Position numbers and translations under genes: made by a program. Of a stretch of DNA of 64,000 nucleotides, positions 51,178-51,507 are shown in pieces. The DNA lies in the NCBI RefSeq assembly GCF_003790525.1, contig NZ_CP033635.1. One strand, given 5' to 3'. Every line of letters begins with the position of its first letter. Within the stretch, counting starts at the first letter, position 1. The DNA comes from Escherichia coli. GTDB lineage: Bacteria > Pseudomonadota > Gammaproteobacteria > Enterobacterales > Enterobacteriaceae. Below the pieces are notes generated by a model. It worked only from the letters and a program-made list of their open reading frames with translations, did not search any database and was not told the origin of the DNA.

Positions 51178-51507
51178 AATGGTTATACCACTCCTACGCC
51201 TTTTCCAGACGGCGTATAAGAGTGCAACATGTTGAGTTTTCCGAGTGAATGGTGCATTTTACTAACCGAGCCATTTGAATCAACCAACGCAATAAAAAAG
51301 ACTGGAATAATAAGCCTGTATTTATTATTCATCGCAATCGCACTCTACGGTTTTATCCTGCAGAAATGAGACTACTTCCAGCGGTTGTGGATTATCCCTG
51401 GGCGATAGTCATAGTCTGGTGTCAGGATTCACAAATGACCTGTTACCTGACATGGATATAAACACAACATAGAGTGCGGTAGTTAATCTGAATCATCTAT
51501 TTTTCGG

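Follow-up and report, generated by a model that had tools for sequence, protein, structure and literature searches.

Shadow ORFs are long open frames that lie opposite a coding sequence, in its codon-aligned antisense frame. Type I toxins (Hok, Ldr, Ibs and TisB) and small membrane proteins such as AcrZ and YohP are shorter than 60 residues and have one hydrophobic segment of helix length. The frame studied here, 46 codons with a hydrophobic tail, lies in a 64,000-nucleotide stretch of Escherichia coli DNA (the window), within the 469-bp spacer that separates espY5 from espX3. Its surroundings are the E. coli phoU-yieH 'Z locus', Z5211-Z5214 (espY5, espX3 and espY4). In their passages on this locus, Sankar et al. 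(2009, PMC2646131) present it as an alternative to the bgl island, situated between phoU and yieH in 19% of strains, and handle the island as four ORFans; pieces of cbrC (yieJ) or yieH inside the island go unmentioned in those passages, and the main text does not use the word 'remnant'. We find that the spacer contains such pieces. Our preferred reading, to which we assign a probability of roughly 0.9, is that the 46-codon frame has no function and is a shadow ORF, produced incidentally where pseudogene relics meet at a rearrangement joint.

The Z locus and the spacer between espY5 and espX3

The gene order of the locus is pstCAB-phoU, an effector-like gene, a pentapeptide-repeat gene on the minus strand, espY4, yieH and adeP (Table 1). 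In O157:H7 Sakai the equivalents are ECs_4657 (espY5'), ECs_4654 (espX3) and ECs_4653 (espY4). The spacer DNA was found in 1094 of 5426 complete E. coli genomes (~20%), as one copy per genome and always on the chromosome. GC content is about 30% in the island versus 41% in the ORF-bearing spacer. EspY5 and EspY4 are 33% identical over their full length. A search for distant homologous islands through espX3 showed that this family is confined to E. coli, with 63 clusters and a lowest identity of 70%.

Some observations concern the neighbouring genes themselves. In the PGAP annotation the espY5 effector starts at 48663 and is accompanied by a Z5211-like 'frameshifted hypothetical protein' (48549-48696). 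In the window espY5 is a single uninterrupted frame from TTG 48528 to 51038, and the long form is annotated in other strains; this looks like an annotation inconsistency at the 5′ end of the gene. A REP/naRNA4-like element is located just 3′ of phoU at 48134-48195 (Rfam RF02564; 33 bits against a gathering score of 59.5). In NCBIfam the espX3 protein matched only weakly and below threshold (E 0.0005-0.002). The families concerned were Qnr-type pentapeptide-repeat proteins and the Hailong anti-phage effector HalA, and the matches probably reflect shared pentapeptide repeats only. Finally, the whole 4436 nt of contig JAIJJM010000244.1, assigned to a 'Collinsella sp.' MAG, is E. coli Z-locus DNA (espY4, espX3, the relics and espY5) and is probably misbinned or a contaminant.

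When the spacer was compared with E. coli genomes by blastn, the only matches besides the island itself were in cbrC and yieH, both on the minus strand of the spacer. The cbrC-derived piece (cbrC') is colinear with the N-terminal Cys-rich motif of CbrC. It is identical to residues 14-49 of K-12 CbrC at 22 of 36 positions (61%; tblastn, E 5e-13), and its nucleotide sequence is 75% identical over 111 nt to the cbrC genes of thousands of bgl-type E. coli genomes (blastn), with an E value of 3e-10 against 28 Gb. The sole Pfam match, to positions 7-41 of PF03691, has an E value of 0.023 and is below the gathering score. Coding is disrupted by two TAA codons in place of Q36 and Q37. Homology stops at codon 49 on one side and at about codon 13 on the other, and the flanking sequence to the left is not cbrC.

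The yieH-derived piece (yieH') reads VDSNGSVSKMHHSLGKLNMLHSY from 51284 to 51216, and residues 106-128 of YieH in strain N64 read VVSNGPVKKMQHSLGKLNMLHYF. Identity amounts to 17 of 23 residues (74%; tblastn, E 7e-9) and to 84.5% over 58 nt (blastn), and the NCBIfam YieH equivalog NF007854 matches at profile positions 104-129 (E 9.2e-6). A further piece, ALLYAVWKRRRSGITI followed by a stop, corresponds to the C-terminal end of YieH (ALWKARGWNITR), stop codon included. The two yieH' pieces are joined at the microhomology AGTGCA(G), which is present twice in intact yieH; we therefore conclude that yieH' lost about 250 nt by internal deletion.

The similarity includes the flank beyond the yieH' stop: the segment 51092-51177, stop codon included, is 84% identical to 55457-55543 and contains a second copy of the hairpin that follows intact yieH. 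Because the minus-strand RNA folds with -24.5 kcal/mol (z -3.55) and continues into CUUUUUGU, the hairpin looks like a terminator, and it may be one that is maintained for the convergent genes. The hairpin arms, GACGCTTACTCATCAG and CTGATGTGTAAGCGT, are the same in both copies (51102-51163 and 55467-55529), and the loops differ. In A16 and S1-SRL the 5′ arm has two changes, with pairing retained only as G-U in plus-strand RNA. An Rfam scan of 48000-56000 produced sub-threshold matches only, namely the naRNA4/REP-like element and 'mir-590'; the latter was set aside, as it corresponds simply to the hairpin at 51098-51157. On these alignments, the 469-bp spacer would be fossil DNA, in which a truncated cbrC is fused to a truncated and internally deleted yieH, with the hairpin next.

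Table 1. Coordinates of the relics, open reading frames and genes discussed in the text (positions in the window)
Feature	Position	Strand	Basis and remarks
EspY5-like effector gene (Z5212; 'paralog 1' of the sequence-only reading)	48528..51038	+	Type III effector-like; left copy of the putatively duplicated unit
Hairpin, second copy	51092..51174		Parent 55457-55540, after the intact yieH stop; 84% over 87 nt, colinear
yieH' C-terminal codons (last 16), ALLYAVWKRRRSGITI, with stop 51175-51177	51175..51225	-	Pairwise alignment with intact yieH 55541-55585
49-aa ORF (MNNKYRLIIPVFF...)	51183..51332	-	Chimeric: reads cbrC' out of frame over its start and first 16 codons, then follows the yieH' frame
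yieH' relic, codons 106-128 (6-phosphogluconate phosphatase fragment)	51216..51284	-	tblastn, blastn, NCBIfam; adjoins cbrC' directly
46-codon ORF	51229..51369	+	Chimeric antisense frame across the yieH'/cbrC' junction; antisense codon map; frame not conserved
cbrC' relic (PF03691/UPF0167), codons 14-49, two in-frame TAA	51286..51393	-	tblastn, blastn, Pfam
Pentapeptide-repeat gene (Z5213/espX3; the 'antisense gene')	51508..52695	-	
EspY4 effector gene (Z5214)	52978..55404	+	Right copy of the putatively duplicated unit; linked to the left copy by colinear direct repeats
Intact yieH (55541-56206) with 3′ hairpin flank (55457-55540)	55457..56206	-	Parent of the yieH' and hairpin relics

The 46-codon frame opposite the relics

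The sequence-only reading had described a plus-strand frame from ATG 51229 to TGA 51367-51369, and we reproduced both its coordinates and its translation, MLSFPSEWCILLTEPFESTNAIKKTGIISLYLLFIAIALYGFILQK, exactly. ATG 51229 is the earliest possible start, because an in-frame TAA lies three codons upstream. The sole Shine-Dalgarno-like element is AAGAG at 51218-51222, six bases 5′ of the ATG, which is weak to moderate; the earlier remark was that a strong ribosome-binding site is lacking. The C-terminal transmembrane-like segment that had been noticed was likewise recovered: residues 26-44 (GIISLYLLFIAIALYGFIL) have a mean Kyte-Doolittle value of 2.45 over 19 residues. The frame had also been called unannotated. 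This holds for RefSeq/PGAP, where no feature lies under most of the matches listed among the 1094 E. coli genomes with spacer DNA, but not for GenBank, where many submissions give the label 'hypothetical protein' to the 46-aa ORF and likewise to a 49-aa ORF that overlaps it on the minus strand. The 46-aa ORF is present in UniRef records as well, and several gene callers predict it.

To assess how readily such a frame arises by chance, we counted ATG-initiated ORFs of at least 46 codons in 2000 dinucleotide-preserving shuffles of the spacer. Since at least one was present in 1004 of the 2000 shuffles (50%), the frame is not statistically unusual. The 64-kb window contains 109 ATG-ORFs of 46-99 codons.

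Comparison of the two strands revealed how the frame is built. Its ATG lies inside the yieH' piece, as the complement of the CAT within the AAC-ATG (Asn-Met) codons, and the frame then crosses the yieH'/cbrC' joint at 51285. From there, codons 20-46 and the stop (codon 47) are antisense to cbrC' codons 49 to 22 in exact triplet register. The sense motif of cbrC' consists of polar residues (Q, D, K, T, E, C, D, C, D, E), whose codons have a central A or G, and its complement is read in the ORF as G-I-I-S-L-Y-L-L-F-I-A-I-A-L-Y-G-F-I-L-Q-K; the TAA TAA nonsense pair of cbrC' becomes TTA TTA, Leu-Leu. Under the genetic code, a codon with a central A is matched on the opposite strand by one with a central T, so that polar sense codons give hydrophobic antisense codons. 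The apparent transmembrane helix therefore arises because the tail of the ORF is the complement of a polar, Cys/Asp/Glu/Lys-rich CbrC motif, and the frame is open only through the chance lack, in this lineage, of TTA, CTA and TCA codons in register in the relic. According to the mechanism that we propose, the frame would begin in yieH', pass the junction and continue as the antisense of cbrC', and its openness would be a chance absence of stops, not a state kept by selection.

Searches for signs of expression or function gave little. The 46-aa peptide had no match in Pfam, NCBIfam or PADLOC, and no sigma-70-like promoter was found 5′ of the ORF on the plus strand. Promoter-like sites in the spacer number 2 versus a shuffle mean of 2.7, that is, below expectation; there is a weak 9-of-12 site on the minus strand, from 51283 to 51256, inside the ORF. 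The EHEC sRNA Esr41 was considered as an occupant of the spacer and rejected, being located in OI-43 between z1181 and z1182 (PMC8565820). The table of 'novel intergenic genes' from Sakai Ribo-seq (PMC5597208) has no entry within 4,689,000-4,691,999, where the ORF is expected at about 4,690,400-4,690,590, and the EDL933 translatomics supplements (PMC4765031) mention neither the peptide nor Z5212-Z5214. Z5212 and Z5214 had near-zero reads in 10 of 11 growth conditions (PMC4048457). Because these genes are nearly silent in those O157:H7 conditions, absence from the Ribo-seq lists is weak evidence when taken alone.

Fate of the frame among related islands

We compared the window with 15 other loci; the sample contained 12 distinct full-length alleles. 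The ORF is unchanged or almost unchanged in alleles that share at least 95.9% identity with the window. The identity bands of at least 95% hold about 91% of the 1094 genomes, and all seven distinct alleles sampled there are open, encoding 46 aa in five and 59 aa in two O157:H7 strains, EDL933 and Sakai, in which the stop of the ORF is lost. Of the island-bearing genomes, about 9% lie in the lower identity bands. Codon 18 is a nonsense codon in every one of the five alleles (out of 12 distinct full-length ones) that were sampled from the group with 92-93.5% identity; it is TGA in 23CRST027, S1-SRL, JNE21-009 and GCA_000778785 and TAA in A16. These stops represent two independent changes at one tri-allelic base, 51281: C, G and A on the plus strand give TCA, TGA and TAA in the ORF, and Asp, His and Tyr in the yieH' frame, the matching position of intact yieH being Val. 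The open state, with TCA at codon 18, is probably ancestral. An alternative start that could rescue the hydrophobic half of the alleles with a codon-18 stop was looked for and rejected; they have no in-frame ATG or GTG, and a TTG is present in A16 alone. The haplotype that diverges most (three loci: RMDEC465, GCA_032693325 and ERR4784333; espX3 70% identical) lacks the 5′ half of the ORF.

Conservation of the reading frame in homologous islands, the lack of which the sequence-only reading had named as evidence against its finding, thus breaks down through codon-18 nonsense, stop loss and absence of the 5′ half. The pattern of codon substitution, another of its proposed checks, has no codon-position bias: in this small sample of 12 alleles the 19 variable sites of the ORF are split 7:5:7 by codon position, the changes comprise 13 non-synonymous ones, two being nonsense, and 8 synonymous ones, and an excess of third-position or synonymous changes, as a sign of purifying selection on the frame, is not seen. 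The earlier reading had left three options, a small membrane protein, a small toxin or chance. The last is essentially right and is made more precise by the antisense relation to the cbrC and yieH relics. Neither functional option is supported, given the broken frame, the lack of substitution bias and the lack of a family match. Most likely, the 46-codon frame is not a gene.

Several observations nevertheless count against regarding the frame as a shadow ORF. It is intact in most island-bearing genomes, the partial Shine-Dalgarno sequence AAGAG is well spaced, several gene callers predict the ORF, and the Ribo-seq lists come from O157:H7 in conditions in which the island is silent. These points could be accommodated by a de novo proto-gene that is young and restricted to some lineages. 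It would have arisen from the strand antisense to two pseudogene fragments, where a duplication junction fuses them, and would encode a small membrane peptide with a single pass, of 46 aa in window-type strains and 59 aa in O157:H7. Such a gene would be too young to show purifying selection, and would be dispensable or lost elsewhere. The intact ATG with its partial Shine-Dalgarno sequence, the hydrophobic segment, the probably ancestral TCA at codon 18, the seven of seven open alleles in the bands of at least 95% and the gene calls in GenBank and UniRef records would all be compatible with such an origin. We nonetheless regard it as improbable, in view of two independent nonsense mutations at one codon, a stop-loss and a deletion variant, a neutral substitution pattern and the lack of a promoter-like site upstream, together with island neighbours that are nearly silent in published transcriptomes and the absence of the frame from Ribo-seq lists of novel genes.

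It is also conceivable, although very unlikely, that the real small gene of the spacer is the overlapping 49-aa ORF on the minus strand (51332 to 51183). This frame stays open in all but two of the 12 distinct full-length alleles, including all five with a stop in the plus-strand frame, and is named 'hypothetical protein' on more than 1000 contigs in GenBank; in one genome, that of strain PapRG-04-4, PGAP annotates a fragment of it as a partial pseudogene by protein-fragment alignment. However, its C-terminal two-thirds are the yieH' relic frame (NF007854 positions 104-129), which accounts both for its openness and for the PGAP pseudogene. Moreover, its ATG is ATA in O157:H7, 13 of its 16 substitutions are non-synonymous and 3 synonymous, and the frame is destroyed in the RMDEC465-type haplotype. 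Neither the 46-codon plus-strand frame nor the 49-aa minus-strand frame looks selected.

A type I toxin-antitoxin-like module, in which a hydrophobic membrane toxin would be curbed by a minus-strand antisense RNA, can practically be dismissed: the peptide resembles Hok-, Ldr- and TisB-type toxins in size and hydrophobic tail, and one weak promoter-like site does lie on the minus strand (51283 to 51256), but Pfam, NCBIfam and PADLOC contain no matching toxin family, the locus is single-copy in each genome and is retained in several lineages where the frame is broken, promoter-like sites are fewer than expected from shuffles, and the sequence can be traced to the antisense strand of cbrC and yieH.

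Origin of the mosaic and comparison with known systems

In Escherichia sp. E1V33 (L022, 707-4157) and Pseudocitrobacter vendiensis (L021, 3-2904) the genes are arranged phoU-cbrC-yieH-adeP, without the bgl island, the Z island or cbrB, and this arrangement is a candidate for the ancestral state of the variable locus. Escherichia sp. MOD1-EC7003 has the order yieK-cbrC-yieH. Homology of the window to these three loci ends at the yieH stop and at about cbrC codon 13. We considered the ancestral yieH-cbrC spacer as a source of the hairpin flank (55457-55540) and of the 112 nt at 51396-51507, and rejected it; as neither segment has similarity in the three loci with cbrC next to yieH, both belong to the island. 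Judged from these alignments, an island composed of the 112 nt, espX3, espY, 53 nt and the hairpin appears to have replaced the yieH-cbrC spacer together with the first cbrC codons.

Within the window, a left and a right copy are colinear and in direct orientation, at a spacing of 4365-4450 nt, from 48377 to 51284. The repeats pair 48377-48442 with 52827-52892 (5′ leader, 74%), 49497-49550 with 53908-53961, and 51092-51187 with 55457-55553, and similarity between the espY coding sequences (67-74% at the nucleotide level) is found in parts of the 5′ third only. The hairpin follows the espY stop after 54 nt in the left copy versus 53 nt in the right copy, and the 3′ part of yieH comes next in each. 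At 51285 yieH codon 106 meets cbrC codon 49, a novel joint. Since the relics are colinear with an intact espY4-hairpin-yieH copy that lies 4.4 kb further right, we infer that the ORF straddles an old duplication or recombination junction. Specifically, the yieH(106)|cbrC(49) joint would be expected if a unit consisting of cbrC codons 49-14, the island and yieH codons 221-106 had been duplicated head to tail, or had recombined unequally between two haplotypes, and the espX3 and remaining cbrC of the left copy would later have been lost between phoU and espY5.

Two findings do not fall neatly into this putative origin of the mosaic. The first is a mismatch in divergence between the copies: EspY4 and EspY5 share 33% of their residues versus about 83-84% identity of the relics to their parents. 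This would fit either fast divergence of the effectors or recombination between haplotypes that were already diverged, and because of it the latter, and not an in-situ duplication, may apply. The second is that a deletion in the RMDEC465-type haplotype ends within 3 nt of the same joint. In that haplotype an internal espY5 fragment is joined to cbrC' at most 3 nt from the yieH'/cbrC' joint (window equivalent 51286), and yieH' and the second hairpin are missing (L002, ~4240-5150; L016, 8192-9369, in minus-strand orientation).

As a candidate gene, the ORF has no importance. Its use is as a negative example: the ORF is small and hydrophobic, has a plausible start and is sometimes predicted by gene callers, and its properties are fully explained by its position antisense to dead genes. 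A by-product of the analysis, of modest use for understanding how E. coli genomes evolve, is that cbrC and yieH have left fossils inside the Z locus. The fossils point to an island situated between the yieH stop and about cbrC codon 13, to an ancestral phoU-cbrC-yieH arrangement, and to espY paralogs that stand in two colinear copies of one unit, the joint of which would be preserved at 51285.

The locus shares its site and gene content with the Z locus as presented in the relevant passages of PMC2646131, and a similar proportion of E. coli carries it (1094 of 5426 genomes here, versus 19%). It is also comparable to the phoU-cbrC-yieH-adeP loci, in that the relics match cbrC and yieH, lie on the same strand as intact yieH and occupy the same chromosomal locus; unlike those loci, it has only fragments in a permuted order, with the 5′ part of cbrC upstream of the 3′ part of yieH. 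The ORF resembles type I toxins and small membrane proteins in its size and its one hydrophobic segment of transmembrane length, but it differs from them in having no family match, no conserved frame and no evidence of a dedicated promoter or antisense RNA, and in having an identifiable non-coding origin. The closest likeness in construction is to shadow ORFs, since codons 20-47 (stop included) pair triplet for triplet with cbrC' codons 49-22. In contrast to the usual shadow ORF, however, the sense partner here is a dead, truncated pseudogene, and the frame continues out of register into the remains of a second gene, yieH'.
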